Shown here: one piece after another, positions 1 to 61,770 of the stretch
Layout: the number at the start of each line of letters is the position of its first letter
How positions within the stretch are numbered: the stretch's first letter is position 1
NCBI GenBank assembly: GCA_963698075.1
Contig: OY969116.1
Span: 734,131-798,130 of the forward strand
Length of the DNA: 64,000 nucleotides
Origin: an uncultured Candidatus Berkelbacteria bacterium
GTDB lineage: Bacteria > Patescibacteriota > UBA1384 > UBA12157 > JAENIV01
Direction of reading: 5' to 3'
Made by a program: the position numbers and the translations under genes
The notes under the pieces: generated by a model
Seen by the model: the letters and a program-made list of their open reading frames with translations, nothing else
The model's database searches: none
What the model was told of the DNA's origin: nothing

Positions 1-331
1 GACCCGTTTTGTCACAAGCGGTGGCGACGATAATCCCACATGGCGTGTTCGGATCAGTATTATCCGTGCAGTCCACTCCCCGCTCTACACCCTCGGGCAA
101 ATCCGAGACAGGCGCAGGAGGGAAATGAACGTCGGTGATAACACCATCGAAACGATCGCGCATCCAATATACGTATTGGCTGCCGTCGTACGATTTCGTC
201 TGTATTTTTGGCAAATGTTCCATTGCCTCATACAGATTGGTAGCCTGCAGGACTTCATGCCCTGCTGCTTCCATCACCGAAACCGCTTCGGCCATGTGCT
301 GTGGATCATCCTCGACGATGAGGATACGCAT
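1..331 (-). CDS. response regulator receiver (REC) domain protein, partial (continues past window start)
   Basis: Minus-strand ATG at 329-331 preceded by GAAAGG RBS; translation MRILIVEDDPQHMAEAVSVMEAAGHEV...FDGVITDVHFP is a CheY-like receiver; no stop before position 1; GC ~55%. Confidence 0.55.
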   Translation of the reverse strand, partial: MRILIVEDDPQHMAEAVSVMEAAGHEVLQATNLYEAMEHLPKIQTKSYDGSQYVYWMRDRFDGVITDVHFPPAPVSDLPEGVERGVDCTDNTDPNTPCGIIVATACDKTG

Positions 332-573
332 TTGGCTTTCTACCTTTCATTTCCTCAATTCTTACTGCCAGCCTTCGGGCTACTTGCTGAAAATTGATGC
401 AAAACTTGCCATCTTTTCCCAGAAGACCACCCTGACTGGTTCGCCAGAGACGTATTGGAAAGCGCCCATTTTCGCTTTCCTAATACTCCCAAGGCGATCG
501 GAATGGAAGAATTAAGATGGGCAGTACTCCGCTGCCAGGCTGTGCCATTTAACGTGCGTCAGCCACACGTGCT

Positions 574-651
574 TATGTTCAACTCTCGAACCTCGATATT
601 GCTATCGAAGCTCGAGGTTGACCCCGTTAGATGTAATGTTATCTAACGGGG
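574..651 (-). repeat. cassette-boundary element copy A: imperfect inverted repeat (GTTCAACTCTCGAAC / GCTCGAGGTTGAC) fused to hairpin CCCCGTTAGAT-N7-ATCTAACGGGG
   Basis: Read directly; same arm sequences recur at 22874-22989, 23270-23341, 25132-25205; hairpin arm CCCCGTTAGATA recurs at 24670 and 53641. Confidence 0.5.
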
Positions 652-659
652 GAAAGTCG

Positions 660-1235
660 TTACAACGGGATACTGAAAGATGCTTCCCAGTACCAGCAGT
701 CCTCCTTGGAAAGACTTGGCGCGGCGTAGAGGGAAACGTTCTTATCGCGCCAGGTGGGGCCAAGGTAGACGTCACTGTCGTAACCAGGCATCGCCAGGAC
801 CGCCGCCATCGCGCCGAGCTTGCCTCCAGGTTGATAGTCCCCGAAGACATAAACTCGACTGGTAGTGTTGTCCTTGGCGGCGAACAATGGTCGGACAACT
901 AGGGTTAGTTCGCGGGTGATTGGCTGAACGTGATTCACCCCGATCCAGAGACGGCTCAGACTGTCGTAGCGGATGGCCAGAGAAGTCAGTGATCCGATTT
1001 TGCTTACGTACAGGGTCTGACGAGAGGTGTCGTCGGAGAAGGACTCGTCGGTAAGCCTGAGGCTCACCTTGTCGTTGCCGACGCGGATGTCGGTCATTCT
1101 GAAGAAGGTCGCGCAGTCGGCCGGGTTCATCTCGGTGCCGACAGTTAGGCTCAGCGACTTCAACTCGATAGGCGCGGCCTGGGCCAGGGAAGCAACCAGT
1201 ACGAGAGCAACCAGAGAAGCCAGGACGAATTTCAT
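660..1235 (-). CDS. secreted hypothetical protein (signal peptide MKFVLASLVALVLVASLAQA)
   Basis: 191-aa ORF, N-terminal hydrophobic signal with AQA cleavage-like site; GC ~55% (foreign-like). Confidence 0.5.
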   Translation of the reverse strand: MKFVLASLVALVLVASLAQAAPIELKSLSLTVGTEMNPADCATFFRMTDIRVGNDKVSLRLTDESFSDDTSRQTLYVSKIGSLTSLAIRYDSLSRLWIGVNHVQPITRELTLVVRPLFAAKDNTTSRVYVFGDYQPGGKLGAMAAVLAMPGYDSDVYLGPTWRDKNVSLYAAPSLSKEDCWYWEASFSIPL

Positions 1236-1461
1236 TGTTTTCTCCCGCGTTTAAGGTCCGCCGACCATAGTTTTAAGGTTCAATACCCCTGAAGCCGCTT
1301 TTTGAAGGGCCTCAGGGGGTTGAACCAAGTTGTCAATGTACGTTTTAACCTGTTAGCAACCGATTTATCTGGTCGAAATCATCTCTCTCATTTTCCGAAC
1401 ATCATAGTATACCACAAAACAATACAAATGTCAAGTCTTTTTCGTCATTATTGATATAAGG

Positions 1462-1539
1462 TGTATATCTTGACATTTTAATATAAATATGGTATGATGT
1501 CAATAGTGACGACATATAATCGTCAACATCAGGAGTAGG
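1462..1539 (+). promoter_or_regulatory. sigma70-like promoter of TrmB paralog 1 (TTGACA 1470-1475, 17 bp, TATGAT 1493-1498) with palindromes TTGACAT..ATGTCAA and TGACGAcatataatCGTCA, RBS AGGAG
   Basis: Hexamers and inverted repeats read directly upstream of ATG 1540. Confidence 0.4.
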
Positions 1540-2307
1540 ATGGACATCAAATCATCATTAGAGCAAATTGGACTTCGAAAAAGACAAATTGATATTTACC
1601 TTGCTCTTTTGCAAATGGGCGAGGCAACTGTGCAAGAGATCGCTAATAAAACCAAAGTTAAACGAACTACCGTTTATAGTATTTTAGATGTTTTAATCGC
1701 CAATGGTTTAGCCACTTTTATTGAAAAAGAAGGCCACCGAACTTACTTTGCCGAGAACCCAAAAAAAGTTATTTTATATTTTAAAAACCAAGAGCAGGAA
1801 TTAAAAACCAAATTAAATAAATTTAGTGAGATAATCCCCGAACTTTCTTCGATTTATAATATTCAAGCTACCAAACCAAAAATTCGTTTTTACGAAGGCG
1901 TTGAGGGCTTAAAACAAGTTTTTGAAGAAACTTTAACGATTAAGCCACACGAAGAAATTTTGGCGATTGCCACGGCGGCTTTGATCCACGAGGTCCTTGG
2001 CGATGAATGGGTCAACAATTATTTAACCCGCCGCGTCGGCGGGAAAATCAAACAGCGGGCGATTGTTGAAGATTCGGCCTGGGGTAGAGAACATCAAAAA
2101 AATGATAAAAAAGAAAATCGGGTCACTCGCTTAGTGCCCAAAGAAAAATTTCCGTTTTCCAATGAGGTCAATATTTTTGGCAATAAAGTCATGATCGCCT
2201 CATTCAAAGATCAAATCGGAGTAATAATCGAGAGTGCCGATGTGGCCAGGACCCAAAGGGCGATATTTGAACTGGCGTGGCTGGGAGCCGATAAGTACAG
2301 TAAATAG
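1540..2307 (+). CDS. TrmB-family transcriptional regulator (wHTH N-term + TrmB C-domain), paralog 1
   Basis: N-terminal LEQIGL..IYLALLQMGEATVQEIA..TTVYSILDVLIANGL wHTH; paralogous to ORFs at 23916, 25751, 29992. Confidence 0.8.
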   Translation: MDIKSSLEQIGLRKRQIDIYLALLQMGEATVQEIANKTKVKRTTVYSILDVLIANGLATFIEKEGHRTYFAENPKKVILYFKNQEQELKTKLNKFSEIIPELSSIYNIQATKPKIRFYEGVEGLKQVFEETLTIKPHEEILAIATAALIHEVLGDEWVNNYLTRRVGGKIKQRAIVEDSAWGREHQKNDKKENRVTRLVPKEKFPFSNEVNIFGNKVMIASFKDQIGVIIESADVARTQRAIFELAWLGADKYSK

Positions 2308-2601
2308 TATTTGTATATGGTTATTAGTGATTAGTATAAGATAAAGATAAGGGAAAGGCGGCCTGATGGCCGCCTTTGAAATAGACGGTATTACAGGTTC
2401 TAGAAACGGTTCCAACTTCCAATCTTGGAGAAGGGCGCCGAGATGAAGGGCGGCAGCAAAGGGACCAATGCCCCCCAGAACGTATTCATCGTGAGTTGAT
2501 TCGCAGTGCGGCTTTATTAGCTTGAGGACTTGTTCGGCTTTGGGGATGCTAACTCCGGCTTGGGCGTAAGTCAGACCTTTCTCTGGTGGTTGCTGGCTCA
2601 T
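2200..2601 (-). pseudogene. remnant of PurM/AIR-synthase-superfamily gene (N-terminal fragment only)
   Basis: Translation GLTYAQAGVSIPKAEQVLKLIKPHCESTHDEYVLGGIGPFAAALHL matches the PurM-like N-terminal motif (LTYKDAGVDID...GGFGGLF) but diverges after ~70 aa; high-GC (2378-2610) patch; frame runs through the TrmB terminator hairpin into the TrmB gene 3' end. Confidence 0.4.
2355..2378 (+). terminator. hairpin AAAGGCGGCC-tgat-GGCCGCCTTTG downstream of TrmB paralog 1
   Basis: perfect 10-bp stem read directly; weak T-tail. Confidence 0.4.
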
Positions 2602-2707
2602 CCTCATCTCCTCGGACTTCAGCGCTATTTCATAAATATTATCTTTAGATTCAAAAGTCAAGAAAAATTTGACAAGAAGGGATATTTTTCCTCAAAATGA
2701 ACTCGAG

Positions 2708-22317: not shown

Positions 22318-22440
22318 GTGCTAGAGACTTCTTTATATTTTATAATATTTTTTATTTTTAACCTGAAAAATATACTACTTTTTCTACTCGAGTAATCAAA
22401 GTGATATAGTTTTCCCTGTTAGACTATTAATTTGTAAACA

Positions 22441-22480
22441 AAAAGCCCCGCCGGTTTTCACCTTTGGGGCTTGGTGGTGG
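22441..22480 (-). terminator. rho-independent terminator AGCCCC-N-GGGGCT with T-run on minus strand
   Basis: hairpin AGCCCCGCCGGTTTTCACCTTTGGGGCT followed (minus) by TTTTTGTTT. Confidence 0.5.
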
Positions 22481-22508
22481 TGCCGTTGTGCCTGTTGGGG
22501 CGCGAGGC

Positions 22509-22871
22509 CTAGTAATACATCTTGGCATACTTGATCTCCAGAAGTAGTTCCTCCAGCGCTTTAATTCGCGGCTTGTCATCGGGGTAGTAGCGTTTCTCTG
22601 CTGCCAAAAGGGCTTCGACGGGAGCGGGAGCTTCGAGAATTTGGCAGTTAATGCGGATTTTCTCCTTATCTGTTTTGTCCTTTGATTCCTTGGCGCTGGA
22701 AATTCTGGCCTCATCGAACGCCCGATAACATTTGGCGTACTCCTCGGGCGTATCTTCCCCGATTCCGACGTAGGCGTATGCCGCCATTGCCCGAAAGACA
22801 GCTCCTGTGAGCTTGAGTCCGGTCTGCCAATCGGGGGACAGCACTCTAAACACGTCTTCCCATCCAGGCAT
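22509..22871 (-). CDS. hypothetical protein (high-GC islet cassette gene)
   Basis: 120-aa ORF, RBS AAAGGAG, GC ~52%. Confidence 0.5.
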   Translation of the reverse strand: MPGWEDVFRVLSPDWQTGLKLTGAVFRAMAAYAYVGIGEDTPEEYAKCYRAFDEARISSAKESKDKTDKEKIRINCQILEAPAPVEALLAAEKRYYPDDKPRIKALEELLLEIKYAKMYY

Positions 22872-22873
22872 CT

Positions 22874-22989
22874 GTTTTCTCCTTTCTCAACGCTCCAATC
22901 CCGTTAGATAACGATGTATCCAATGGGACTCGAGGTTGACCATGTTAAATCTGAAAACTATTTAACAGGGTTGAGCCCCGCCCTCACGG
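22874..22989 (-). repeat. cassette-boundary element copy B (GGAGCGTTGAGAAAG ... CTCGAGGTTGACC ... hairpin AGCCCCGCCCTCACGGACGGGGCT)
   Basis: read directly; shares arms with copies A, C, E. Confidence 0.45.
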
Positions 22990-23250
22990 ACGGGGCTGGT
23001 TGAAATTGCGGCGGATAAGCCGCAGTGCTTTGCCCTCTAACTGCTTGGTTTGCCTCCGTGTTTTGCCGAGCAGCCGACCCGCTTCCTCGAGAGTCATGAG
23101 GTGGGCGGAGAGGCCGAAGCGATAGCTCAGAACCATCCGTTCAGACACATCAAGGGCGGCGTAGGCTTGGCGGACTCGTTCTTGGTCTTCGGCGGTCACA
23201 TCCTTCAGCTCTTTGCCTGTTAGGGCTCGCGCCAAATGCCTGAAATCCAT
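22984..23250 (-). CDS. sigma-70 region 4-like HTH small protein (88 aa)
   Basis: LDVSERMVLSYRFGLSAHLMTLEEAGRLLGKTRRQTKQLEGKALRLIRR matches sigma70 region 4 (LSERER.VL.LRFGL...TLEEIG..LGVTRERIRQIE.KALRKLR); RBS CTAGGAGG. Confidence 0.55.
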   Translation of the reverse strand: MDFRHLARALTGKELKDVTAEDQERVRQAYAALDVSERMVLSYRFGLSAHLMTLEEAGRLLGKTRRQTKQLEGKALRLIRRNFNQPRP

Positions 23251-23269
23251 GAGTTCCTCCTAGGAGATA

Positions 23270-23341
23270 GATTCAACTCTTGAACTCCCATATCTCTATA
23301 GAAGCTCGAGGTTGAGCCGGAAAGTCACCCAACCCTCCGGC
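23270..23341 (-). repeat. cassette-boundary element copy C (GATTCAACTCTTGAACTC ... GCTCGAGGTTGAGCC + hairpin GCCGGA-N-TCCGGC)
   Basis: read directly. Confidence 0.45.
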
Positions 23342-23462
23342 TATTTTGATCTTACCCATGGCTGTTTGAACGGGTTTGATCGGTTGTCGTGTGGTTGCCT
23401 TCTGGTTCTTGCCCAGGCGCCCCACACAGGCTGAGCCGTTCTCGGCTAGCGAACCGCTAGAG

Positions 23463-23759
23463 CTACTCCTTCACCAGGAATGCTACGGCTTGGATGATAA
23501 ATCCTGATGGTTGGAGCCAGTCTAGAGTGAAGTAGCCGCGATTTGGTTCGGGATACTCCCTAACCTTGACGTCCTTCATCTTGGTGGGTTTATCCTGGCC
23601 AGGAAAAGTAATCTCCTTGGCCTCCAAATCGGCGACGTACTCCTTTCCCGCAGGGAGGGTATGTTCGAGAACGTAGAGGGTATCTGGCGTTCTCGCATAC
23701 TGGCCACTGCGGGCGGTAGTGGTAAGGCGGATCGGTATGGTCTCACCTCCTTTCAGCAC
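23463..23759 (-). CDS. hypothetical protein (cassette gene)
   Basis: 98-aa ORF in same orientation as neighbours, GC-rich. Confidence 0.45.
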   Translation of the reverse strand: MLKGGETIPIRLTTTARSGQYARTPDTLYVLEHTLPAGKEYVADLEAKEITFPGQDKPTKMKDVKVREYPEPNRGYFTLDWLQPSGFIIQAVAFLVKE

Positions 23760-23915
23760 AGGTTGTCAAAAACAGGTTAACAGGTATAACTTATCTTCAG
23801 AACGTAATATTATAGCACATTCCGACTGATTTGTCAAGACTTTTTACATATATATTGACAAAATAAAAGATTTGATATATAATATAATTAATAAATGTAA
23901 AAAAAATTTACAACA

Positions 23916-24662
23916 ATGAATCTAGAGAAACTTTTAGAAGAATTTGGGTTAAATGAGAAAGAGGCAAAAACTTACCTTGCCTGTTTGGAATTGGGGCCAT
24001 CGAAAATTCATGACATTGCTGACTTATCGGGCGTTGGTCGAGTGAATACCTACTATATTATTGAGAAATTAATCCAGCATGGTTTGGTCAGCCGCACTTT
24101 CAAAAAAGAGAAAATGCTTTTTGTGGCGGAAGAGCCGGAAGTTTTAGCGGAAATTGCCCAACGCCGGGCCAAGCGTTTTAAAAATTTATTACCCAATCTT
24201 AAAGCCCTCTCAAAAGGAGAGAACAAACCCTCGGTCAGGTATTACGAAGGCGAAGAAGGAATCAAAGCGTTATATGAAGATTCTTTAACCAGTAAAGAAA
24301 AAATATATGCTTGGAATAGCGCCGAAAATCTTGAAGCAGTCATGCCGGAATATTTTCACGATTATTACAAGCGCCGGGCAGCCAAAAATATCTTTATTAC
24401 AGGTATTTTGAATGATTCTCCTGAAGCGCGGGCATACCAAAAGCAGGATAAAGAGTTAAAACGCGAAATTCGACTGGTGCCCGAGAATCGAATGAATATT
24501 AAGCCTGAGTGCTATATTTATGAAAATAAGGTCTCTTTTATGTCTTTACGGGAGAAAATTGGGGTGATGATTGAGTCTAAAGATATCGCCGATGCGATGA
24601 AACGGCTATATGAACTTGCTTGGGAAAGAGCTGGGGAATATCAAAAAAAGGTCTCGAAGTAA
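23916..24662 (+). CDS. TrmB-family transcriptional regulator, paralog 2
   Basis: LEEFGLNEKEAKTYLACLELGPSKIHDIADLSGVGRVNTYYIIEKLIQHGLV; promoter TTGACA-16-TATAAT with TTGTCAA/TTGACAA inverted repeat at 23831-23862. Confidence 0.8.
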   Translation: MNLEKLLEEFGLNEKEAKTYLACLELGPSKIHDIADLSGVGRVNTYYIIEKLIQHGLVSRTFKKEKMLFVAEEPEVLAEIAQRRAKRFKNLLPNLKALSKGENKPSVRYYEGEEGIKALYEDSLTSKEKIYAWNSAENLEAVMPEYFHDYYKRRAAKNIFITGILNDSPEARAYQKQDKELKREIRLVPENRMNIKPECYIYENKVSFMSLREKIGVMIESKDIADAMKRLYELAWERAGEYQKKVSK

Positions 24663-24669
24663 AACAAAA

Positions 24670-24732
24670 CCCCGTTAGATAACTCTGTATCTAACGGGGC
24701 AGGAGCCCCGCAGCCGATATGGCTTTGGGGCT
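24670..24732. terminator. tandem hairpins CCCCGTTAGATA-actctg-TATCTAACGGGG and AGCCCCG-N-GGGGCT between convergent genes
   Basis: perfect 12-bp palindrome arms read directly. Confidence 0.5.
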
Positions 24733-24741
24733 TGGGGCGAT

Positions 24742-25098
24742 CTAATCGACATTAGGCGTCTGGATTACAGCAACAATAACTGCTGCTGGAATCCACATCG
24801 GTACAGGTTCATCTTCCCAGTCGTATCCCGGATGATAGGGGAACCAAGCGTCTCTCAGAAAAGCTCCTTTTTCATTCAAGCTTGCAAGGTTTCCTCTAAC
24901 CACCAGGTGTTCCTCCAGATCATCTTCCGGCTGTTTTTTCTGGTTCCGATAAGTACCGCGTGGTAACTTGATGTTGGTGATGATATGGAACGTTGGTCCC
25001 TCTGGGGAGTTCTTGAAAGGGCCAACATGGCCAAGTAGCCAGTACCAATTCTTGATGTCATCCCAGATTTTCTTAATCTTTCTCCCTAGCTTCTTCAT
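24742..25098 (-). CDS. hypothetical protein (cassette gene)
   Basis: start MKKLGRKIKK with RBS AAGGGG; longer ORF to 25176 unlikely. Confidence 0.45.
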   Translation of the reverse strand: MKKLGRKIKKIWDDIKNWYWLLGHVGPFKNSPEGPTFHIITNIKLPRGTYRNQKKQPEDDLEEHLVVRGNLASLNEKGAFLRDAWFPYHPGYDWEDEPVPMWIPAAVIVAVIQTPNVD

Positions 25099-25131
25099 TG
25101 TTCCCCTTGCGTTTAAGGGCCGCCGCCCGTA

Positions 25132-25205
25132 GATTGTCAACTCTCGAGCCATCCAAGTCAAACCTGAATGGCTCAAGGTTGACCCCGCCCCTGATTGGGG
25201 CGGGG
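25132..25205 (-). repeat. cassette-boundary element copy E (GATTGTCAACTCTCGAGCC ... GGCTCAAGGTTGACC + hairpin CCCCGCCCC-tgatt-GGGGCGGGG)
   Basis: read directly; arms pair as ~15-bp imperfect stem with 20-nt loop. Confidence 0.5.
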
Positions 25206-25211
25206 TGAGTG

Positions 25212-25577: not shown

Positions 25578-25750
25578 CCTCTCCTTGAGTTTTAAGCTTC
25601 GTTCCAATGGGCGATACCTGTTATCAGGTATGCTTCCCATCGTGAACGTCCTATTATAGCATATATGCAAGCAAATGTCAAGTCTGTATAGACATATATT
25701 ATGGACTATTGACCAAATATAATAAATAGTGTATAATAGAATTAAACAAT

Positions 25751-38375: not shown

Positions 38376-38473
38376 ATAAAAAGTAATTTCGTTCTATCAA
38401 TTTTCTTGACCGAAATTATATTATAGTGTACTATTAGTGGCTGATTCCAGTACGCGAAGAAAGGAAGCCGAGC

Positions 38474-38974
38474 ATGAGCAATTCGACTGCAGCACCCGAA
38501 GTGACGCAGGAGGCGGCCGGCCATTTCGGCATCGGAACGAAACATCCTGGTGGCGACATGACGCTCTTGATGATACCAGCCGTCCCGGAGCAGTTCGATC
38601 TGGATTCTCTGAACGCACGGATCGACCCCAATGGTTATCTTGTCATCGACGCCGAGCGAGGTGAGTCGAAACTTCACTTGGTTCTACCGGCTGATGAGAC
38701 GAAGATGACGGAAGTGACAATGTTCACACCGCAGCCCGAGACCGAGTTACAGTGGGTTCTCCACGCGAGGTGGAGCGGTGAACATTTCACCTTCGTGCTC
38801 AACCCAAACTTCATGAAGCTGTGCCAGCCTGGCTTGGCGCTCTACGTGCTCACCGAGCATTTGGCCAAGTGCTTGACCAAAGCCATGATCGACGACATCG
38901 CCAGATTCTGTACCAGCAGGTCTGGCTACTACGCAGACTTCGGTCGGCTTATTTCAGAGCTGTCGGCGCGGTGA
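38474..38974 (+). CDS. hypothetical protein, orphan high-GC (~58%) gene with own promoter and terminator
   Basis: promoter-like TTGACC/TATAGT and RBS AAAGGAAG upstream; perfect terminator downstream. Confidence 0.5.
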   Translation: MSNSTAAPEVTQEAAGHFGIGTKHPGGDMTLLMIPAVPEQFDLDSLNARIDPNGYLVIDAERGESKLHLVLPADETKMTEVTMFTPQPETELQWVLHARWSGEHFTFVLNPNFMKLCQPGLALYVLTEHLAKCLTKAMIDDIARFCTSRSGYYADFGRLISELSAR

Positions 38975-38992
38975 GGAATCGAAGTATGCATT

Positions 38993-39030
38993 GGCGGCGG
39001 AAACGCAGTTTCCGCCGCCTCTTTTGTTTA
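38993..39030 (+). terminator. rho-independent terminator GGCGGCGGAAAC-gca-GTTTCCGCCGCC + TCTTTTGTTTATT
   Basis: perfect 12-bp stem and T-tail. Confidence 0.7.
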
Positions 39031-44872: not shown

Positions 44873-44940
44873 ATTAATTTAATCATCTACTCGCGGCCTC
44901 GCCAACACTTATCGGGATGAAAATCCCCCTAAGTTCTGGC

Positions 44941-45150
44941 TCAGGGGGAATCGTTGACGGGTTCGATTGCATCTTGGTGAAAGGTGAGGTGAATTTCTTC
45001 GTCTGGATAACCAGGTTCTTTTAGGATCAATCTGACGATCAAATAAGACCCTCTGGAACCAACAATCTCACCTATCCTCCCGTCGGCCCGGATCCTAACC
45101 TTTTGCGGCGACTCATTATCCTCTGGCATTTCCTCTCTCCCAGATGTCAT
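44941..45150 (-). CDS. small hypothetical protein (69 aa)
   Basis: ORF with hairpin TCCCCCT..AGGGGGA downstream; weak. Confidence 0.3.
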   Translation of the reverse strand: MTSGREEMPEDNESPQKVRIRADGRIGEIVGSRGSYLIVRLILKEPGYPDEEIHLTFHQDAIEPVNDSP

Positions 45151-46602: not shown

Positions 46603-46628
46603 ACGCCACGTCAAGGTTGACGTGGCGG
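46603..46628 (-). terminator. hairpin CGCCACGTCAA-gg-TTGACGTGGCG, T-run on minus strand
   Basis: perfect 11-bp stem; minus-strand tail TTTCTTTTTTTTG. Confidence 0.5.
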
Positions 46629-46838
46629 GGGTTGGGTCGATGTGAAATTGCTTCGTTAGTGCTTGTGGCACCGATTCGATCTATCGTCTCTTTCCTCTGC
46701 TCGAGGTTTTTGGACCTTGAACAGGCGTCCAACAGCCTATAGTTCGGGGTTTGCTTTCGAGAACTTGACGAAGATGTCTTCGTTTCTCCAATTCTTCCAA
46801 CTCTGCGCGGTTGATCTCTACGTCAGTGAGTTTCCTTC

Positions 46839-47246
46839 TCATCGTCTTTTACCTCCTTTAACAAGCTGCAGATTGCGTAGTCCGGCTTGGGGGACGAATT
46901 GACCACCGACTCGAGAGCCAAAAAGATAGCGAGGATGTGAAGAACATCTAAGAACCACTCCTTCAGTATCTGCCGGCTCAAGAATGTATCTTTCGTTAGC
47001 TGGTTTTGGTGGATTGTTGTGAAGGATAACCTTGCCAGCAAAAGGCAACCGTGACTCTTCGGTGGCTTCAAGATCCAGACTAACACATCGATGTTTGCCA
47101 CCTGCCTTTGCTTCACAGATGACGTATGACCCGAAGGGATGATTATTGCGCAAGATGGTGACAGGAAACAAAAAAGGGATTTCGAAGTTTCGCCAGCAAT
47201 CAGAATCTCGAAATTGGCCTGTCAGGGTGAATGGGCTTCTTACCAT
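46839..47246 (-). CDS. hypothetical protein (high GC)
   Basis: strong RBS GAGGAGGTGAG before ATG 47246. Confidence 0.5.
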   Translation of the reverse strand: MVRSPFTLTGQFRDSDCWRNFEIPFLFPVTILRNNHPFGSYVICEAKAGGKHRCVSLDLEATEESRLPFAGKVILHNNPPKPANERYILEPADTEGVVLRCSSHPRYLFGSRVGGQFVPQAGLRNLQLVKGGKRR

Positions 47247-47493
47247 CTCTCACCTCCTCAATCTTGTTGAGGTGCGGCTATTCCAACAAGCCCATGGCTT
47301 GATGAGATCATAATATCCTGTTCGGTTTTTCCAGTCAAGAGGGATTTGATAAACCGCCCCGGTAGAGGCGGTCAGTTCGATGGTTCTAACCGAGTCTGTT
47401 TCTATTCTCCCAGAATCTGACGAATCTCCAAATGATGTAGAAAGTAATAGCGGCGAAAAGGCAAGCAATAATGGCTGCTGGTAAACGGGGCAT

Positions 47494-47625
47494 TTATATA
47501 ACCTCGTCAGGATTCTGGCCATAATAGTCCGACCAATTCCAAATGATGTGCCAGATCAGCAAAAGAAAACCGGCGATTGGGATACTCAGGAGTAAGACTT
47601 TCAGAATAATGAGTTCTCTGCCCAT
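47494..47625 (-). CDS. small hydrophobic protein (43 aa), tentative
   Basis: RBS GGGAGGAAAGCG + ATG; MGRELIILKVLLLSIPIAGFLLLIWHIIW single TM; not in ORF track (<60 aa). Confidence 0.3.
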   Translation of the reverse strand: MGRELIILKVLLLSIPIAGFLLLIWHIIWNWSDYYGQNPDEVI

Positions 47626-47676
47626 CGCTTTCCTCCCTCTGGTGGTGGTGCGTCCCCCCTGTTAGTATCGAACTTC

Positions 47677-47889
47677 TCAAATATAGGTTAAAATTACCCA
47701 GATTGTCAATAAAATAAGGATAATAGAGAGAACTGTGATCATTAAACATTGTTTTGGCGTTTTAGAGTTATAACTTTCGTGATTTTTTTTAAGGCAAAAC
47801 CAAAAAATAAAACCAATTGAGGCCAAACTAAAAATAAACAATAGCCAATCAAACCATGGCAATCCGAAAAAAGACAAATTTGCCATCAT
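47677..47889 (-). CDS. small membrane protein (70 aa, two TM)
   Basis: RBS AGGAGGGG + ATGATG. Confidence 0.5.
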   Translation of the reverse strand: MMANLSFFGLPWFDWLLFIFSLASIGFIFWFCLKKNHESYNSKTPKQCLMITVLSIILILLTIWVILTYI

Positions 47890-50979: not shown

Positions 50980-52650
<1,671 letters not shown>

Positions 52651-52784
52651 GAGAATATAGCCTCGGGTCGCCCCCGTTCGCATCCAGCCACCCTAGCCAA
52701 CCTAGGCTCGAACTTCGTTCGAGCCACCGGCATTCGCTCAGGGGGCATCCCCTCGGCTCATAAAGATAATAAGAAATAAAGAAG

Positions 52785-52808
52785 ACCGCTCGAAAGGGCG
52801 GTTTTCTT
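52785..52808 (+). terminator. groEL terminator ACCGC-tcgaaagg-GCGGT + TTTTCTT
   Basis: read directly. Confidence 0.5.
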
Positions 52809-52811
52809 GAT

Positions 52812-52846
52812 ATGAAAAAGGCCGACCCCTGTATCGGAAGGGTCGA
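52812..52846 (-). terminator. hairpin CGACCC-N11-GGGTCG with T-run on minus strand
   Basis: read directly. Confidence 0.4.
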
Positions 52847-52892
52847 CCCTGTGTGACAGATTGGCACCCTGCTGGGCATAGTCAGTTGATTC

Positions 52893-53180
52893 TCAGAGTC
52901 GAGCTTCAACTCGTTTGGCTTTCCTTCGTGCAGCCTTCCTGATTTCAGAGGCTAAACCATTGGCCATCGCCTGGAGCCTGGGTGTCGAGATGCCGGTTCC
53001 GACTAAGATTGACTCAGCCTTGCTGGCTGTATGTTCTCCGATATCACGGATAGCTTGTGGCATGGTGCAAGGGATGTAGCTATCGCGGCGACGAACGAAG
53101 TCAGGATCCTTATGGGGATTCCACCTGGCGGTTGCTCGGCGGACCTTCTTCATGACAGATTCAACCTTCTGCATGGTCAT
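52893..53180 (-). CDS. hypothetical basic protein (95 aa)
   Basis: RBS AGGAGA; driven by consensus promoter TTGACA-18-TATAAT (53203-53232 minus). Confidence 0.5.
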   Translation of the reverse strand: MTMQKVESVMKKVRRATARWNPHKDPDFVRRRDSYIPCTMPQAIRDIGEHTASKAESILVGTGISTPRLQAMANGLASEIRKAARRKAKRVEARL

Positions 53181-53245
53181 CTCCTGACAGCAGAGTGATT
53201 CAATTATATCAACAATACTTTTTTAATGTCAACTTATACCTCACC
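53181..53245 (-). promoter_or_regulatory. consensus sigma70 promoter (minus-strand TTGACA 53227-53232, TATAAT 53203-53208, RBS AGGAGA)
   Basis: hexamers with 18-bp spacer read directly. Confidence 0.55.
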
Positions 53246-53272
53246 AACATAGATTAAAAATTAATCGATGTT
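53246..53272. repeat. AT-rich palindrome family copy 4 (AACATAGATTAAAAATTAATCGATGTT)
   Basis: read directly, abuts -35 of promoter above. Confidence 0.5.
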
Positions 53273-53305
53273 TGGGAAAGGTCGTTTAAAAAAATACCAA
53301 AAAAT

Positions 53306-53554
53306 TTAAAAAAGATGTGAGAACGCGTCTTCGTTAAATTGATAAAAAGTTTTGTAGAGAGTTGGCTTGGCTTTTAAAAAATGATGTTTGGTAAAGCCGC
53401 GGCAATAATATTGCACCGCGCCGATTGACCACCTAAGATCAGAAGCAACTTGGGCTTGATAGAATTCTTTTTGCTCATCACAGTAGCGTAAAAATTGGGC
53501 TTTCTTTTTGCCAAAAAGGAACTCAAATTGGCCAGTGTCTTTGATTTTAATCAT
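53306..53554 (-). CDS. small hypothetical protein (82 aa)
   Basis: RBS GGAGG; flanked on both sides by palindrome copies 4 and 5. Confidence 0.45.
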   Translation of the reverse strand: MIKIKDTGQFEFLFGKKKAQFLRYCDEQKEFYQAQVASDLRWSIGAVQYYCRGFTKHHFLKAKPTLYKTFYQFNEDAFSHLF

Positions 53555-53573
53555 CGCAAAAACCTCCTTCGGA

Positions 53574-53598
53574 CATAGATTAAAAATTAAGTTATGTT
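53574..53598. repeat. AT-rich palindrome family copy 5 (ACATAGATTAAAAATTAAGTTATGTT)
   Basis: read directly. Confidence 0.5.
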
Positions 53599-53756
53599 TC
53601 TTAAATCATCATCCAACGAGTCCATAAATTTGTCAAGCCCCGTTAGATAGCTTCGCATCAAACGGGGCGCAGACCCCGCAGACGACGCTCCTGCGTGATT
53701 GAACGTAGTTCAATAAGTCAGGAAGGAGTTGTGCTGGGGTCAAGCCCCGAAAATTT

Positions 53757-54104
53757 TTAAGCCAAGTTCGGTAGCTTGATTTTGTGTTTATCAATCACAT
53801 GGCCCTCGAGCTTTAATATCCGCTCTTTTTCTTTGGGCCCACGAGCATAACCGCCGAGATGACCATCAGAGCGGATAACCCGGTGGCAAGGGACGGGATC
53901 GAAATCCTCCAAAGGCAGTTGCCATTCGCGGGCGCGATAGTTGCGATTCAAAATTGACCCCACAGCCCGATAGGCCCGAGGGCTTCCAGCTTCGCGGGCA
54001 ACTTGAGAATAGGTCATCAACTTCCCTCTCGGGATTCTTGAGACAATATCCAGAACTCTTTTGGAGAAATCTTTGACCATATTATGCCGGGACGCCGGCA
54101 GCAC
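53757..54104 (-). CDS. ogt: methylated-DNA--protein-cysteine methyltransferase
   Basis: active-site PCHRVI motif. Confidence 0.85.
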   Translation of the reverse strand: MLPASRHNMVKDFSKRVLDIVSRIPRGKLMTYSQVAREAGSPRAYRAVGSILNRNYRAREWQLPLEDFDPVPCHRVIRSDGHLGGYARGPKEKERILKLEGHVIDKHKIKLPNLA

Positions 54105-57542: not shown

Positions 57543-57569
57543 AGCACAATTATAGCGTATTTTAACCTA

Positions 57570-57608
57570 TAGATAAAGAAGAGGGTGACGGGACAGATCC
57601 CGTCACCC
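57570..57608 (-). terminator. hairpin GGGTGACGGGA-cagatc-CCGTCACCC with T-rich tail on minus strand
   Basis: read directly. Confidence 0.5.
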
Positions 57609-57629
57609 CACGCGGCTGTGATCAGGCGG

Positions 57630-58037
57630 CTAGCTCAGGATGTGTGCTCGCAGATCTTCTGCGCGGGTAGTCCAACCCTTCCCGATCCAGATGACCTTCC
57701 CATCCGGAATGAAACCTGTCCAGACGGCGACTCGCATCCTCGGGTAGCGAGCCGCCATCTCCTCGGCTGTCCGTTCCATATCGCGGCTGACGAAGACTAT
57801 CGCGCTCACTCCCGTGCCTGTCTGGATGCGGTGCTCCGCCTCCTTGGCGGTGGCGAAAATCTCCACATCTGCCGCTTTCTGCGTACCGCCATGTAGGGCA
57901 GGCACTTCTGCCTCGAGCGTTTCCTGGAGATACTTGACCTGCAGTTCGTAGTCTTCGGGCGTTGCTTGCCCCCACTGTCCTTCCTTTACGATCAGAACGG
58001 TCGGTATCATGCCGTCCTCCTTTCCGTGGTGATACAA
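57630..58037 (-). CDS. hypothetical protein (high GC ~58%)
   Basis: 135-aa ORF; flavodoxin/CheY-like alternation of hydrophobic strands; no motif recognised. Confidence 0.45.
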   Translation of the reverse strand: MYHHGKEDGMIPTVLIVKEGQWGQATPEDYELQVKYLQETLEAEVPALHGGTQKAADVEIFATAKEAEHRIQTGTGVSAIVFVSRDMERTAEEMAARYPRMRVAVWTGFIPDGKVIWIGKGWTTRAEDLRAHILS

Positions 58038-58226
58038 CAGCTAATTGTATATTAAAACCTTTACAAATTCAAGAGAGTATTAAAAAAAGGACTCTCTAAG
58101 TCCGAAACTCATAGGTCAATTATACCTGAAAACCTAATAAAATCCAACAGCTCAAGACGTGAGCCATTGACAAAATTTTCAGATAAACTAGTATAGATTA
58201 AAATACTCAAAAATGGGTAATCGAAA

Positions 58227-59402
58227 ATGGCTAAATCAAATCTTAATCAAGCTTTAACCTTTGATGACGTGTTGCTTTTGCCCGGCTACACTGATTTTAC
58301 GCGCAAGGAAATTAATCTTTCCACTAATCTGACAAAAAAACTCAAAATCGCCCTGCCGCTGGTTTCAGCGCCAATGGATAAAGTCACTGAAAACCGTCTG
58401 GCCATCGCTTTGGGAAAACTTGGCGGCATTGGCATTATCCATCGCAATTTATCCGTCAAAGATCAGGCGCGAGAAGTTGCCAAAGTCAAAAGTCAAAACC
58501 TGCTCGTGGGGGCCGCCATCAGCTCGCAACCCGGGTTCGACGAACGCACCGAAGCTTTGATTCGGGCAAAAACCGATTGCATTGTCATTGATTCGGCCCA
58601 TGGGTTTTCCAAATTTGTGATTGATTGTCTTAAAACCATTAAGAAAAAATATCCTCGGTTACAAGTCATTGCCGGAAACGTCGCCACTTATGACGGCGCG
58701 CGGGCATTAGTCAATGCCGGCGCTGATGGTTTACGTGTTGGCATGGGGCCGGGCTCAATTTGCTCAACGCGCGTGATTTCCGGGATGGGGGTGCCGCAAA
58801 TCACCGCTTTATTGGAAACTTCACGGGCTGCCAAAACGCGCAAGATTCCCGTGATTGCTGACGGCGGGATTCAATTTTCCGGCTGCATTGTCAAAGCCCT
58901 GGCCGCCGGCGCCTCATCGGTAATGATGGGCTCGATGTTTGCCCAAACTGTGGAATCGCCGGGCAAGGTGGTTTTCTTAGACTATTCCCATGTCCCTTCA
59001 AGATTTAAAAGCATTTGGAATAATAATGCGAATCATGCGGGTCATCAGCGAACAAATAAATATCCTTTTAAAGAATACCGCGGCATGGGCTCAATCGGAG
59101 CGATGCAGGAGGGCATTAAAATTAAATCCGAAGACGAATTTCACAATAAAGAATATCCGAAAAAGAAGAATGGTCATTTGATTGCCGAAGGCATTGAAGG
59201 TTTGGTGCCGGTAAAGGGCTCGTTAAGTGAATTAGTCGAACAGCTCATCGGTGGGGTCAAATCAGGATTTTATTATGTTGGCAGCCGGACTATCCCTGAG
59301 CTTTGGCAAAAAGCGCGGTTTATTCAAATTACCCCGGCCTCTTTGGCAGAAAGTCATCCTCATGATATTTTAATTACTAACCCGGGGAAAAATTATTTGT
59401 AG
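58227..59402 (+). CDS. IMP dehydrogenase family protein (CBS-less short form)
   Basis: GMGPGSICSTRVISGMGVPQ catalytic Cys loop, TIM barrel length 391 aa. Confidence 0.85.
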   Translation: MAKSNLNQALTFDDVLLLPGYTDFTRKEINLSTNLTKKLKIALPLVSAPMDKVTENRLAIALGKLGGIGIIHRNLSVKDQAREVAKVKSQNLLVGAAISSQPGFDERTEALIRAKTDCIVIDSAHGFSKFVIDCLKTIKKKYPRLQVIAGNVATYDGARALVNAGADGLRVGMGPGSICSTRVISGMGVPQITALLETSRAAKTRKIPVIADGGIQFSGCIVKALAAGASSVMMGSMFAQTVESPGKVVFLDYSHVPSRFKSIWNNNANHAGHQRTNKYPFKEYRGMGSIGAMQEGIKIKSEDEFHNKEYPKKKNGHLIAEGIEGLVPVKGSLSELVEQLIGGVKSGFYYVGSRTIPELWQKARFIQITPASLAESHPHDILITNPGKNYL

Positions 59403-59519
59403 TTCTCTCACTTGACAAGTTGGACTCATCCAAGATATTTTGAACTTGACCTCATCGGTTCTCTTCAAAACGATGAGGTAGCACTCCACAGGAGGAAGAC
59501 GGTAGTGACCAAACAAGAA

Positions 59520-60224
59520 ATGGTCCGTCGAATCATCGAGGCTAAGGGTCTCGAAATCCATGATGTCGACGCCGGCGAAGAGGCATTTCTTTACGCCTCA
59601 GGAAACTGGGGTCCGATCTATGTTTCGATCAAGGGACTCGTCTCTGTTGTTAAGCCGGTCAAACTGATAGAGGTGCTGACTGCTCACTTGGCGGTGAAGG
59701 TTGCCGAGGCCGTACCTAACATGGACTTTCTGGCGGCCAACGTTAGCGGCGGAATGGTGCCTGGCTGGAATCTGGCAGAGATGTTGGAGCCTTTCCTTGG
59801 TCGACCAGTGCCTTACGTCTATGTCCGCGAGACGAGAAAGAAGGGCGGTCAGAAGGAGCTTATTACCGGGTTGGCGACTAATCCTGATCTTACGCCAGGC
59901 ATGAATTGTCTGATTCATGAAGAGCTAGTCAACTTCGCTGAGACGACGATCAATAGTGCCTCGGCGATGCGTGCCGCTGGCTACGTAGTTACCCATGCTT
60001 CCACGATTCTTTACTACGACAATCCGGTCGCCAATGCCAATCTGAAGGAAGAGGGAATCGAGATGATTGCTCTTCTGACGATGCCAGAACTCATCGATAT
60101 CGCCGAGCAAGACGGACTACGCACTCCTCGTCAGATTGCCGCCTATCGCGAGTTCAAAGATGATCCTCTTGGCTGGCAGGCGAAGCGAGGACTCAAGCCA
60201 GTCGCGAGTGGAGGAACTCAATGA
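59520..60224 (+). CDS. type I phosphoribosyltransferase, OPRT(PyrE)-like paralog
   Basis: FLYASGNWGPIYVSIKG (PRPP/orotate loop-like) and VYVRETRKKGGQKELITG; longer ORF from 59412 possible; GC ~53%. Confidence 0.5.
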   Translation: MVRRIIEAKGLEIHDVDAGEEAFLYASGNWGPIYVSIKGLVSVVKPVKLIEVLTAHLAVKVAEAVPNMDFLAANVSGGMVPGWNLAEMLEPFLGRPVPYVYVRETRKKGGQKELITGLATNPDLTPGMNCLIHEELVNFAETTINSASAMRAAGYVVTHASTILYYDNPVANANLKEEGIEMIALLTMPELIDIAEQDGLRTPRQIAAYREFKDDPLGWQAKRGLKPVASGGTQ

Positions 60225-60925
60225 ACAAGCCATTAGTCTTTGTTGCTTTGGATGGATTGGCTACCGAAAGAGCGAAAACCCTTAAGACAGCCGAAGATCT
60301 TTGTAAGGCAGAAGGTGGCGATTTCGGCTTCAAGATCAACCTCGATGCCTTGATCGATCTGGACATGGGACTGAGAGAGATCTTGGCGCCGATCCAAGAG
60401 CTTAATCGTCCGATCTTTGCCGACCTCAAGGTTTTCAACGGCACCCGGACCATGGCTTCGTTGTTTGGCAAACTAGCCGATCTGGGGATCAACTACACCA
60501 ATGTCTGGGCTCAGGCGGAAAGGTTACTCCCTAAGGCTATCAAAGCCGTCGAGGGAACCCAAACCAAGATTCTGGGTCTCACTGTTCTGACCCACTATGA
60601 CGAAGCCTACTGTCAGCGCCATTTCGGCCGAGATTTCCCTTCAACCGTCCGCCACTTCGCGCAAGTTGCGGTCGAGAATGGTTGCCATGGGATTATCCTT
60701 CCTGGAACTCAACTTTCGGCTGTCCGGGATCTTGACACCTTCAAGGTGGTCCCCGGTGTCCGGCCAACATGGTATCACGACGATCGCCATAGCGAAGAAG
60801 CCGAGATTACACCAAAGGAAGCGGCTGAGGCAGGCGCTGATGCCCTTGTCTGCGGTAGCCCAATCATGAAATCGGCTGACCCCGTCGCTGCCTTGAGCAA
60901 TATTCTCCTCGAAGTCAATCAATAG
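60221..60925 (+). CDS. pyrF: orotidine-5'-phosphate decarboxylase
   Basis: LVFVALDGL...FADLKVFNGTRT...GADALVCGSPIMKSADP. Confidence 0.8.
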   Translation: MNKPLVFVALDGLATERAKTLKTAEDLCKAEGGDFGFKINLDALIDLDMGLREILAPIQELNRPIFADLKVFNGTRTMASLFGKLADLGINYTNVWAQAERLLPKAIKAVEGTQTKILGLTVLTHYDEAYCQRHFGRDFPSTVRHFAQVAVENGCHGIILPGTQLSAVRDLDTFKVVPGVRPTWYHDDRHSEEAEITPKEAAEAGADALVCGSPIMKSADPVAALSNILLEVNQ

Positions 60926-60943
60926 ACCATTCACACGACTTGT

Positions 60944-60985
60944 TGCCCGTAGGGATAGAGTGCCCTGCGGGCTTGTTTTTTATTT
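60944..60985 (+). terminator. hairpin GCCCGTAGGG-N-CCCTGCGGGC + TTGTTTTTTATTT
   Basis: read directly. Confidence 0.5.
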
Positions 60986-60996
60986 ATGGATTTTAT

Positions 60997-61770
60997 ATGT
61001 TCGAAAAGACGATCAAATTGCTACTGGGGGTGAACCCAATGAAGGGCGACAAGACGATAGCAATGCTTGAAGAACGACTCCAGGCGCGTGAGCCCCTTAG
61101 TGCCGAAGAGATGGCTGACGCGCTTTGCCAGCTTGGAGCCGTCGTTTGTGCACCTACAAGAAGAACACTGGCTCACAGGATGTATTCTGAATTGCCACCA
61201 TGTCCCATTTTCATTGATACACGTATCCAACCGAAGGGGCCGTTAAGTTCGAAGCAAGTTAATCTCCTTGGTCAACACATGGCTTTAGCATTTGAGCCAT
61301 ACGCCCAAGATCGTCGAATCATTCTTGCTGGAGTTCCTCAAAGTGGACGACACTTGGCAGAGGCATTTTCCGAGCAGTGGTCGGGTGATGATAGGGAGTC
61401 AGAATGTCTTAAGATTATCAGAAGAAGCAAGGTTGAGCTGGCTCTTGCGAAGCAGCGAAAACCCAGGTTGGAGACAGATTACAGCTTGATTATTGATAAT
61501 GCCACTGAGACCGGCAACACGGCTGGTAAAGCTGCTTTGGTGCTTCAGAGAGACGGATACAATGTCGATTGTTTCGTTCTCGTAAACAGAGATGAAGGCG
61601 CTCGTGAATTGCTTGAGGCGATAAATGTTCGTCTGATAGCATTTGTCAGTCTTATGACCGTTGTCAAAAAGGCAATTGAGCTCCACAGTCAAGAAATATG
61701 GGGGAGACTTCAAGCTTTCCAGAACGCCTTACGTAATAGAATCGGCCTTCCTCGCGTTCAGCTACCCTAA
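60997..61770 (+). CDS. pyrE: orotate phosphoribosyltransferase-like
   Basis: YSLIIDNATETGNTAGKAALVLQRDGYNVDCFVLVNRDEGA matches OPRT PRPP-binding motif and VLVDREEGG tail. Confidence 0.55.
   Translation: MFEKTIKLLLGVNPMKGDKTIAMLEERLQAREPLSAEEMADALCQLGAVVCAPTRRTLAHRMYSELPPCPIFIDTRIQPKGPLSSKQVNLLGQHMALAFEPYAQDRRIILAGVPQSGRHLAEAFSEQWSGDDRESECLKIIRRSKVELALAKQRKPRLETDYSLIIDNATETGNTAGKAALVLQRDGYNVDCFVLVNRDEGARELLEAINVRLIAFVSLMTVVKKAIELHSQEIWGRLQAFQNALRNRIGLPRVQLP

Follow-up and report, generated by a model that had tools for sequence, protein, structure and literature searches.

GC-rich accessory units in a 64-kb Patescibacteria genome segment and a tandem-hairpin junction in operons facing TrmBL2-like genes

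The 64-kb stretch of contig OY969116.1 examined here (positions 734,131 to 798,130, called the window below) is part of a genome of about 0.93 Mb from the Patescibacteria, also known as the candidate phyla radiation (CPR), and carries small GC-rich islets in a background of lower GC content. The reading favoured here, with a probability of roughly 0.55, is that these islets are accessory units at intergenic hot spots, and that a subclass of them are operons regulated by TrmBL2-like proteins and joined by a hairpin which works at the level of the transcript and doubles as homology for exchange. Such units would be self-contained, hold one to five genes and occupy intergenic slots between conserved genes, where they would be gained, lost and replaced among relatives. 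In the TrmB subclass a consensus sigma-70 promoter in an AT-rich divergent spacer would drive a GC-rich operon of unrelated small genes, with cistrons split by a tandem element and an end formed by shared terminator modules (CCCCGTTAGATA..., AGCCCCGC...). The TrmBL2-like proteins may repress these divergent operons. The junction hairpin may process or stabilise the transcript, and may in addition give the homology for recombinational exchange of modules consisting of an open reading frame (ORF) plus a hairpin. The GC richness could come from a pool of higher-GC Patescibacteria, or from GC-biased conversion in frequently recombining DNA.

Compositional islets and horizontal gene transfer (HGT) within the phylum are known; the docking of operons to TrmBL2-like genes and the tandem-hairpin junction, which has no counterpart in Rfam, appear to be new. 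Targeted literature searches found no paper on a TrmB-linked or integron-type cassette architecture in Patescibacteria. How the tiny genomes of this group acquire and control accessory functions is poorly understood, and the present description replaces vague foreign-looking patches by a defined, searchable architecture. A covariance model of the junction could map the operons and their cargo across the CPR, and would make it testable whether exchange is site-specific or homologous and whether the hairpin acts as RNA. Should envelope-active proteins, such as the barrel predicted below, be among the cargo, the cassettes may bear on host interaction.

Four TrmBL2-like genes and the operons divergent from them

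Four paralogous TrmBL2-like genes are encoded on the plus strand within 30 kb, at 1540..2307, 23916..24662, 25751..26509 and 29992..30756 (TrmB1 to TrmB4), and are 29-39% identical to each other. The N-terminal TrmB winged helix (PF01978) is recorded in the paralogs and in their relatives, with an E-value of 5.7e-13 for TrmB2, and a profile of paralog residues 7-244 aligns over the full length with the TrmBL2 structures 5bpd, 5box and 5bqt (E 8e-7 to 1e-6). Membership in the sugar-sensing TrmB/TrmBL1 equivalog was not found, the NCBIfam scores being 21-29 bits compared with cut-offs of 600-650. The N-terminal winged helix and the full-length alignment are shared with the TrmB and TrmBL2 proteins of the Thermococcales. 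The differences are that the proteins of the window are bacterial, that four paralogs occur in 30 kb, and that their putative targets would be the accessory operons next to them, in place of sugar regulons or of repression across the chromatin.

All four paralogs stand opposite a divergent, GC-richer gene set, with back-to-back consensus promoters in AT-rich spacers. The set facing TrmB1, of which an ortholog with 82% identity was found at a locus of another genome (L002), is islet 1 (1..1300, minus strand). It contains the gene of a 191-aa protein with signal peptide (660-1235, GC content 0.57, GC content at third codon positions (GC3) 0.71), followed by a hairpin with CCCCGTTAGAT (622-651), a junction hairpin (579-621) and a partial response-regulator gene (2-340). 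The promoter block that drives islet 1, TTGACA-N17-TATACT at 1397..1448 on the minus strand, belongs to repeat family D7 and lies in an AT-rich spacer common with TrmB1. The three-gene operon of islet 3 (22427..23760, minus strand) starts from a promoter at 23837..23809, where 12 of 12 consensus positions match. It is made up of a 98-aa ORF (23463-23759), a junction hairpin (23273-23315), an 88-aa sigma70-region-4 protein (22984-23250), an AGCCCCG hairpin (22974-22997), a variant junction hairpin (22887-22939), a 120-aa ORF (22509-22871) and a terminator (22444-22471). Islet 4 (24664..25680, minus strand) is a two-gene operon, again with a 12/12 promoter (25681..25653), in which a 120-aa ORF (25212-25574), a GC-rich hairpin (25182-25206), a junction hairpin (25137-25182) and a 118-aa ORF (24742-25098) precede a double terminator (24669-24735) containing CCCCGTTAGATA and AGCCCCGC. 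Islet 5 (26641..29844, GC content 0.49) comprises a GH5/39-like glycosidase on the plus strand (26641-28353) and, on the minus strand, a methyltransferase (28458-29192) and a GNAT acetyltransferase (29194-29844); the latter two form the pair divergent from TrmB4 and have their promoter at 29905..29877.

The tandem-hairpin junction

Between the cistrons of islets 1, 3 and 4 a tandem element is found, which consists of a variable GC-rich hairpin and, directly following it, a second hairpin of 43 nt with the consensus TCAACCTYGAGC...TCRAGAGTTGA and the arms TCAACCTYGAGCTT-loop-RRSYTCRAGAGTTGA. This junction hairpin has a size of 43-53 nt and a 19-bp stem with one conserved bulged base. Its outer helix is 96% paired and nearly invariant, and its inner helix covaries. 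RNAalifold yielded 19 pairs, eight of them with double compensatory changes, and G-U pairs recurred at two positions. In nine of the 12 copies folded the coding strand folds better than its complement by 6-15 kcal/mol, an advantage which is due to the G-U pairs, and in the other three there is no difference. Such strand-biased folding speaks for a role of the element in the transcript, or in any case in one of the strands.

The window of 64 kb contains four copies, all inside the three GC-rich operons named above. A metagenome scan with a TrmB alignment sampled 80 further TrmB loci, and a covariance model of the hairpin detected seven copies there in five independent loci: L126, L139 (two copies), L150 (two), L165 and L167. 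L167 and L003 are one contig, and the locus of L002 is also present in L003 and L004. All copies, those of the window included, are placed 0.5-2.2 kb upstream of a TrmB-like gene and in antisense orientation to it. The metagenomic ones lie inside a block of 0.50-0.55 GC, and the sequence around these element-bearing CPR loci has 29-53% GC. Other CPR loci without a TrmB neighbour, about 0.2 Mb in total, yielded no copy. A search of the window against Rfam 15 brought only three tRNAs to the gathering score, and nothing up to an E-value of 10 overlapped the element.

Two comparisons place breakpoints of synteny at the hairpin. The homology between the window and L002 ends at base 579 of the window, which is the last base of the element, and L150 differs from L165 by exactly one additional unit of a 140-aa ORF plus element, where the alignment breaks no more than 1 nt from the 3' end of the element. 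In these two cases the ORF plus hairpin behaves as a module. L150 and L165 have a radical-SAM gene, the element and a small ORF in common. In both of these metagenomic CPR loci (L150 3600-5700, L165 1600-3200) the TrmB-divergent GC-rich operon opens with the radical-SAM enzyme, followed by the hairpin and an ORF of 78-91 aa, and this arrangement may be a peptide-maturation cassette.

Repetitive extragenic palindromes and the bacterial interspersed mosaic elements composed of them (REP/BIME) are similar in that short imperfect palindromes lie between the genes of operons and can stabilise transcripts and serve as recombination substrates. They differ from the element described here, which is not dispersed over the genome, has no GTAG-type head and is always paired with an upstream variable GC hairpin and located next to a TrmB-like gene.

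Promoters, terminators and shared motifs

The first-pass annotation of the window had proposed that the islets share terminator arms and CTCGAG motifs. Compared with dinucleotide-preserving shuffles all three motifs proved to be enriched: AGCCCCGC with eight copies against 2.2 expected, CCCCGTTAGAT (at most one mismatch) with seven against 0.86, and CTCGAG with 18 against 8.35. The sharing is confined, however, to the islets at 1-1300, 22400-23760, 24664-25680 and 26640-29850 and a 51-nt block at 53635-53685, so that the motifs link just four to five stretches and not 12 islets. The repeats of CTCGAG and CTCGAGGTTGA are the arms of the 43-nt junction hairpin, and CCCCGTTAGATA represents one form which the upstream hairpin or the terminator takes. 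Among the shared CCCCGTTAGATA and AGCCCCGC hairpins, two copies, at 24669-24700 and 22444-22471, have the make-up of an intrinsic terminator, with a T-run behind the GC-rich stem on the transcribed strand. Behind the copy at 622-651 comes the junction hairpin in place of a T-run, and behind the one at 53638-53667 comes CTTGACA. As the operons have a common layout, the shared arms are understood as the grammar of one family of accessory operons within Patescibacteria, and not as the mark of one donor.

The proposal that several islets have a promoter and a terminator of their own was confirmed. In the interval from 20 to 60 kb, perfect 12/12 promoters occur only in the spacers between TrmB genes and islets and ahead of the gene of a 95-aa protein at 53.2 kb, and the terminators ranked best all belong to islets. 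In addition a conserved motif of the 5'-untranslated region (5'-UTR), CGGCGGNCCTTAAACGC, stands ahead of the start codons of two unrelated islet genes in the window, and L002 has a third case with the variant CGGCGGGCCAAAACGC.

An AT-rich palindrome, ACATCGATTAAAAATTAATCGATGT, is a further recurrent feature. It is located at 15010-15034, 22293-22317, 39065-39089, 53247-53271 and 53573-53597 of the window and at 14975-14999 of L008, the closest relative, just 5' of promoters or ribosome-binding sites, for example of genes for an 82-aa winged-helix protein, the 95-aa islet protein and a GtrA-like protein, and often where an islet begins or ends. A native regulator probably uses it as an operator.

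Composition of the islets and the native background

The window has a GC content of 42.8%. The 13 segments listed as GC-rich by the first-pass annotation have 50.9% when pooled and the remainder 40.5%. The contrast is therefore genuine, but the range of 52-58% which had been given fits about half of the list. The individual values are 53.5% for 1-1300, 51.9% for 2378-2610, 53.2% for 22400-23760, 50.3% for 24664-25680, 48.8% for 26640-29850, 48.7% for 30818-32110, 59.6% for 34840-34975, 53.7% for 38400-39030, 49.1% for 44880-45150, 47.2% for 46640-47660, 53.9% for 52650-53180, 59.9% for 57585-58040 and 50.8% for 59412-61770. Eight of the 13 are richer in GC than every stretch of equal length in the unlisted sequence. 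The other five are merely in the upper tail: 34840-34975 in the top 0.3%, 30818-32110 in the top 1.1%, 2378-2610 in the top 2.8%, 46640-47660 in the top 5% and 44880-45150 in the top 7.8%. A local GC content of 50% is also reached by some conserved genes such as those of H+-PPase, ssb and an MGMT-like protein, and conserved genes form a continuum from 0.36 to 0.49. The GC-rich units are small and numerous, with 0.25-4.3 kb and roughly 12 units in 64 kb.

The dinucleotide distance delta* to native DNA is 0.14-0.17 in three of four islet groups, compared with a null maximum of 0.10, and islet 5 (26640-29850) has a native-like signature. Among the islets of eight loci the distances are 0.04-0.13, and from islets to native DNA 0.09-0.25. 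Thus most islets can be separated from the background by signature, but the signature is generic: it is also near that of unrelated Firmicutes loci, and its use as a donor test was dropped for this reason.

Several results identify the background as native. The source contig has a length of 929,420 bp, and the nearest ychF loci among species-representative genomes belong to metagenome-assembled genomes of Patescibacteria, with 81%, 69% and 62% identity. The conserved genes of the window (ychF, rpsF, ssb, efp, trpS, groES/EL and a xerC-like gene) have a GC content of 0.40-0.48 and a GC3 of 0.40-0.50, glycosylation membrane proteins have 0.36-0.37, and two 20-kb loci of relatives have 0.408. The low GC content of these core genes and relatives' loci gives no indication of a genome with about 50% GC, the situation in which the low-GC glycosylation loci and not the islets would be the foreign part. 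The view that the GC-rich stretches are accessory and the background is native was supported in this way, and also by the slots themselves, which are empty or refilled in relatives.

In L009 and L010 the xerC-like gene directly adjoins ychF, so the segment 57543..61803 between these genes in the window represents an insertion or deletion. The same is true of 52650..53757, since in L010 the MGMT-like gene abuts groEL. The corresponding slots of L008 are occupied by other GC-rich ORFs, including a 3-kb block of 0.50-0.57 GC between the 82-aa gene and groEL, and L009 has a GC-rich gene of its own, of 0.85 kb, between the xerC-like gene and ychF. None of four islet ORFs of L008 that were scanned belongs to a Pfam family. 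As slot contents vary between relatives, the slots behave as hot spots with turnover. Of the features that characterise horizontally acquired islands, deviant base composition is found in the islets, and presence in one genome with absence or different content in relatives is found for 52650-53757 and 57543-61803.

Cargo genes and the 191-aa protein

In 16 of the 24 islet ORFs scanned no Pfam family was detected, in accordance with the earlier impression of mostly small genes of unknown function. The recognisable cargo consists of the partial response regulator, the sigma-70 region-4 protein, the GH5/39-like glycosidase, the methyltransferase, the GNAT acetyltransferase, an IMPDH/GMP-reductase-like protein, a pyrE-like gene and pyrF. 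Among 1.84 billion representatives only two further clusters are related to the 166-aa protein of the islet at 38.4 kb. For pyrF the closest relatives with a name come from Berkelbacteria (64%) and Parcubacteria (55%), and the module of IMPDH-like, pyrE-like and pyrF genes is also present on a contig of 0.51 GC, with a response-regulator gene ahead of it. Nucleotide-biosynthesis genes recur as GC-rich accessory genes, with purD in a further relative, L005, and pyrE-like, pyrF and IMPDH-like genes in the window. The purD gene of L005 (0.54 GC) forms a GC-rich pair at 14919-16834 with a 158-aa gene of no known family (0.54), in a background of 0.41.

The 191-aa gene was followed through three genomes. 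In each it is divergent from a TrmB-like gene and, with a GC content of 0.56-0.59, stands out from surroundings of about 0.41. Its position differs in all three: in the window it is found upstream of a deacetylase gene, in L002 among other glycosylation genes and in L005 beside dnaA, where the TrmB-like neighbour is 43% identical to TrmB1. The ratio of nonsynonymous to synonymous substitution rates (dN/dS) between the window copy and the copies of L002 and L005 is 0.11-0.16 at a dS of 0.83-1.0, from which it follows that this is a real gene under purifying selection. Between the window and L002 the dS is 0.95 for TrmB1 and 0.85 for the 191-aa gene; flanking genes are saturated. On every contig examined the homologs lie in a low-GC, CPR-type gene context. 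An AlphaFold model based on a seven-sequence alignment predicted a 12-stranded beta-barrel, with a mean predicted local distance difference test (pLDDT) of 83.8 and a predicted template modelling score (pTM) of 0.76, but only two of five models exceeded a pLDDT of 80. The strands of the model are amphipathic, and in the PDB it is matched best by KdgM-type small porins of the outer membrane (E 1e-4, template modelling (TM) score 0.59-0.64); at the level of sequence no relation to the PDB porins was found.

Origin of the islets and alternative explanations

The islets had been attributed to a common donor or a common mechanism of mobilisation. A subset of them does share regulatory modules, which point to a common origin or exchange mechanism; a single foreign donor is unsupported, as the homologs are of CPR type. 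Protein searches, which were expected to lead to the donor lineage, returned homologs in CPR-type contexts only and no outside donor. Neither the junction pattern nor the 166-aa, 126-aa and 191-aa proteins had a match in IMG/VR, and blastn of 22400-25700 against phage and plasmid records gave no match. The simplest reading is that the source is a gene pool within the phylum, possibly its higher-GC lineages, and GC-biased conversion is a possibility for the cause of the lasting high GC3. In the sections of a recent study drawn on here, most detectable HGT into Patescibacteria comes from other Patescibacteria, and up to 13% of genome length is attributed to HGT (PMC12455944, mSystems 2025). The islands treated in those sections resemble the present ones as compositionally deviant accessory DNA in streamlined genomes, with intra-phylum transfer and cargo of metabolic or unknown function, and differ in that here the units are small, numerous and without mobility genes, and in that a subset has the fixed arrangement of TrmBL2-like gene, divergent promoter and hairpin-separated ORFs (PMC12455944).

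A number of observations weigh against the reading as accessory units with a TrmBL2-linked subclass. Of the 80 metagenomic TrmB loci six carry the element, one of them being the contig of L003. The GC excess upstream of TrmB-like genes is small, with a mean of +0.034 and values above +0.08 in 13 of 64 cases, so the rule that TrmB genes generally have a GC-rich upstream neighbour was discarded as only weakly true. Both the TrmB neighbour and the element are missing from the islets at 38.4, 44.9, 52.9 and 57.6 kb and from the pyr block; these are grouped with the rest by composition and accessory status alone. Pfam domains of integrases, transposases, relaxases or conjugation proteins were not detected in or beside the islet ORFs, and homolog, IMG/VR, phage and plasmid searches found no donor lineage or mobile-element backbone. 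The generic dinucleotide signature leaves a common pool unproven. A GC3 of about 0.70 persists in each of the three copies of the 191-aa gene across their divergence, which simple transfer with subsequent amelioration does not explain. The 191-aa protein has six homologs besides itself among 5.8 billion proteins in a word-indexed search, which may overlook distant relatives, and its predicted barrel, taken as a lead only, is a hint that it originated in an outer-membrane-bearing bacterium.

The operons invite comparison with an integron-like platform, in which a TrmBL2-like gene with a strong promoter would be a dock and the 43-nt hairpin an attC-like site at which cassettes are inserted and excised by a dedicated recombinase. 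In a variant without integrase, GC-rich ORF-plus-hairpin cassettes would enter, leave and pass between lineages at this hairpin. If this were true, minimal genomes would have a dedicated route to sample accessory genes, including a predicted porin-like barrel that could act on a host envelope. As in integron cassette arrays, small, unrelated, co-oriented ORFs, mostly of unknown function, follow one strong promoter and are separated by a conserved imperfect hairpin with one bulged base, the modules are ORF plus site, and the composition is unlike that of the host. The outer arms of the hairpin (..TCAAC/GTTGA..) are conserved, its inner stem varies and it shows a strand bias, cassette content varies among relatives, and synteny ends at the 3' end of the hairpin in two independent comparisons, one of them a clean single-cassette difference. 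An integron integrase (IntI) is missing, however, and the conserved neighbour of the arrays is a TrmBL2-like DNA-binding protein, not a recombinase. The sole tyrosine recombinase of the window (61804-62754) scores 146 on the integron-integrase model compared with a cut-off of 265 and fits XerC/XerD models best; it lies 36 kb away, next to the pyr block, and keeps its place in L009 and L010, where this block is absent. Known attC sites are about 57-141 nt long, with R'' RYYYAAC and R' GTTRRRY. The hairpin, at 43-53 nt, is shorter and off this consensus, with GTTRRRY present in two of nine copies, and the arrays have one or two sites only. G-U pairs suit a role as RNA at least equally well, and repeats of 43 nt recombine without a dedicated enzyme. 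An integron-like platform is therefore considered unlikely. Recent import from one or a few high-GC bacteria outside the Patescibacteria, for example from the host of the presumed episymbiont, would account for a GC content and GC3 far above the background and for the non-native dinucleotide signature. It would also fit the 191-aa protein as a predicted barrel of outer-membrane type, since Patescibacteria are regarded as lacking an outer membrane. Yet the homologs of this protein that were examined are in low-GC CPR-type contexts, pyrF has CPR relatives, plasmid and phage collections gave no matches, and promoter, 5'-UTR and junction grammar of the islets are the same as in other CPR contigs. 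The parallel divergence of TrmB1 and the 191-aa gene shows in addition that this pair is no recent arrival. CPR bacteria are described as recipients of HGT in the same sections of the study cited above (PMC12455944), and the outside donor nevertheless appears improbable.

It has also been considered that the islets are native genes whose high GC content is a local effect of selection or of GC-biased conversion at recombination hot spots. The GC3 retained in three copies of the 191-aa gene at a dS of 0.8-1.0 would be explained, and so would the MGMT-like gene (0.51 GC) that is conserved in relatives, the native-like dinucleotides of islet 5 and the continuous range of GC content in conserved genes. 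Most islets are, however, missing or replaced in the closest relatives, and the 191-aa gene occupies three genomic positions and is less diverged than its flanks. These observations imply movement and make a native origin doubtful. Since the window is derived from a metagenome and abrupt steps in GC content are a classic sign of chimeras, an artefact of assembly or binning, in which pieces of a higher-GC organism were stitched into a low-GC contig, was weighed too. Logan contigs of run ERR10755944 cross the junctions at 34.8-39.7, about 20-28.7 and 54-60.7 kb, the first of them 100% identical to the window throughout and the other two matching it in gene order. The low-GC/high-GC junction beside TrmB at islet 1 recurs in contigs from other samples, and the AT-rich promoters of the islets are common to neighbouring native genes. 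An artefact is thus highly improbable, and accessory units at hot spots remain the preferred reading.

Other islets and further features of the window

Between the terminator of TrmB1 and the next gene, a GC-rich segment on the minus strand (2378..2610) contains only the start of an ORF with a strong ribosome-binding site and may be a gene remnant. It has no Pfam match, and a suspected similarity of this start to the PurM N-terminus was given up for lack of Pfam support. Two adjacent tRNA-Ser genes (15132-15339) and a tRNA-Arg gene (17411-17484) are situated inside the low-GC glycosylation region, and none of the three adjoins an islet. Islet 6 (30818..32063, plus strand) encodes a 340-aa protein of no known family (30818-31840) and a 67-aa cysteine-rich ORF (31833-32036), with a terminator at 32036-32063; between it and the next gene the 14-nt unit ATACTGGCCGCATT occurs three times in tandem (32069-32110). 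The stretch 34840..34975 is non-coding, with 136 nt, 60% GC, repeated GAGCGAG units and an 8-bp hairpin, GTCCCGCC-TGT-GGCGGGAC, and has no Rfam match.

Two islets consist of a single gene. The one at 38400..39030 (plus strand) encodes the 166-aa protein of no known family (38474-38974, GC3 0.70), followed by a 12-bp terminator at 38993-39019; the one at 44924..45150 (minus strand) has a 62-aa ORF (44941-45129), a terminator (44924-44949) and a weak GC excess (49%). Another weak islet with 47% GC (46604..47749, minus strand) contains small ORFs of 90, 135 and 53 aa, the last two overlapping at ATGA, and a terminator at 46604-46627 with TCAACCTTGAC. A large structured RNA at 46.6-47.6 kb on the minus strand (z-score -3.3) was rejected, as small overlapping ORFs with strong ribosome-binding sites fit better.

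The indel relative to L010 at 52650..53757 (minus strand) starts with a GC-rich tail after groEL. It includes a terminator (52818-52850), the 95-aa ORF (52893-53180) with its 12/12 promoter (53232..53203), the low-GC 82-aa gene of a winged helix-turn-helix protein (53306-53554) and the 51-nt terminator block at 53635-53685, which is 76% identical to that of islet 4. The groEL stop codon is immediately followed, ahead of the terminator of this gene, by about 105 nt (52655-52760) that are GC-rich and apparently structured; a match in Rfam was not found, nor was a counterpart recognised in the same slot of L008 and L010.

The indel between ychF and the xerC-like gene (57543..61803) begins with the 126-aa gene of no known family (57630-58010, minus strand, GC 0.59), which has a terminator at 57582-57609. 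It continues with the IMPDH/GMP-reductase-like gene (58227-59402), the pyrE-like gene (59412-60224), pyrF (60221-60925) and a second phosphoribosyltransferase-like gene (60940-61770). Insertion at a dif-type site beside the xerC-like gene, in the manner of integrative mobile elements exploiting Xer (IMEX), was tried and rejected, as no repeated dif-like border site is present, only a 15-nt repeat. This direct repeat, CATAG(CA/GT)CAATTATA, is identical at 13 of 15 positions and flanks the islet at 57.6 kb at 57540-57554 and 58110-58124. Each copy has a TATAAT box with an ATG about 6 nt downstream, an arrangement from which ychF looks leaderless and the insertion appears to have duplicated its promoter and start region.

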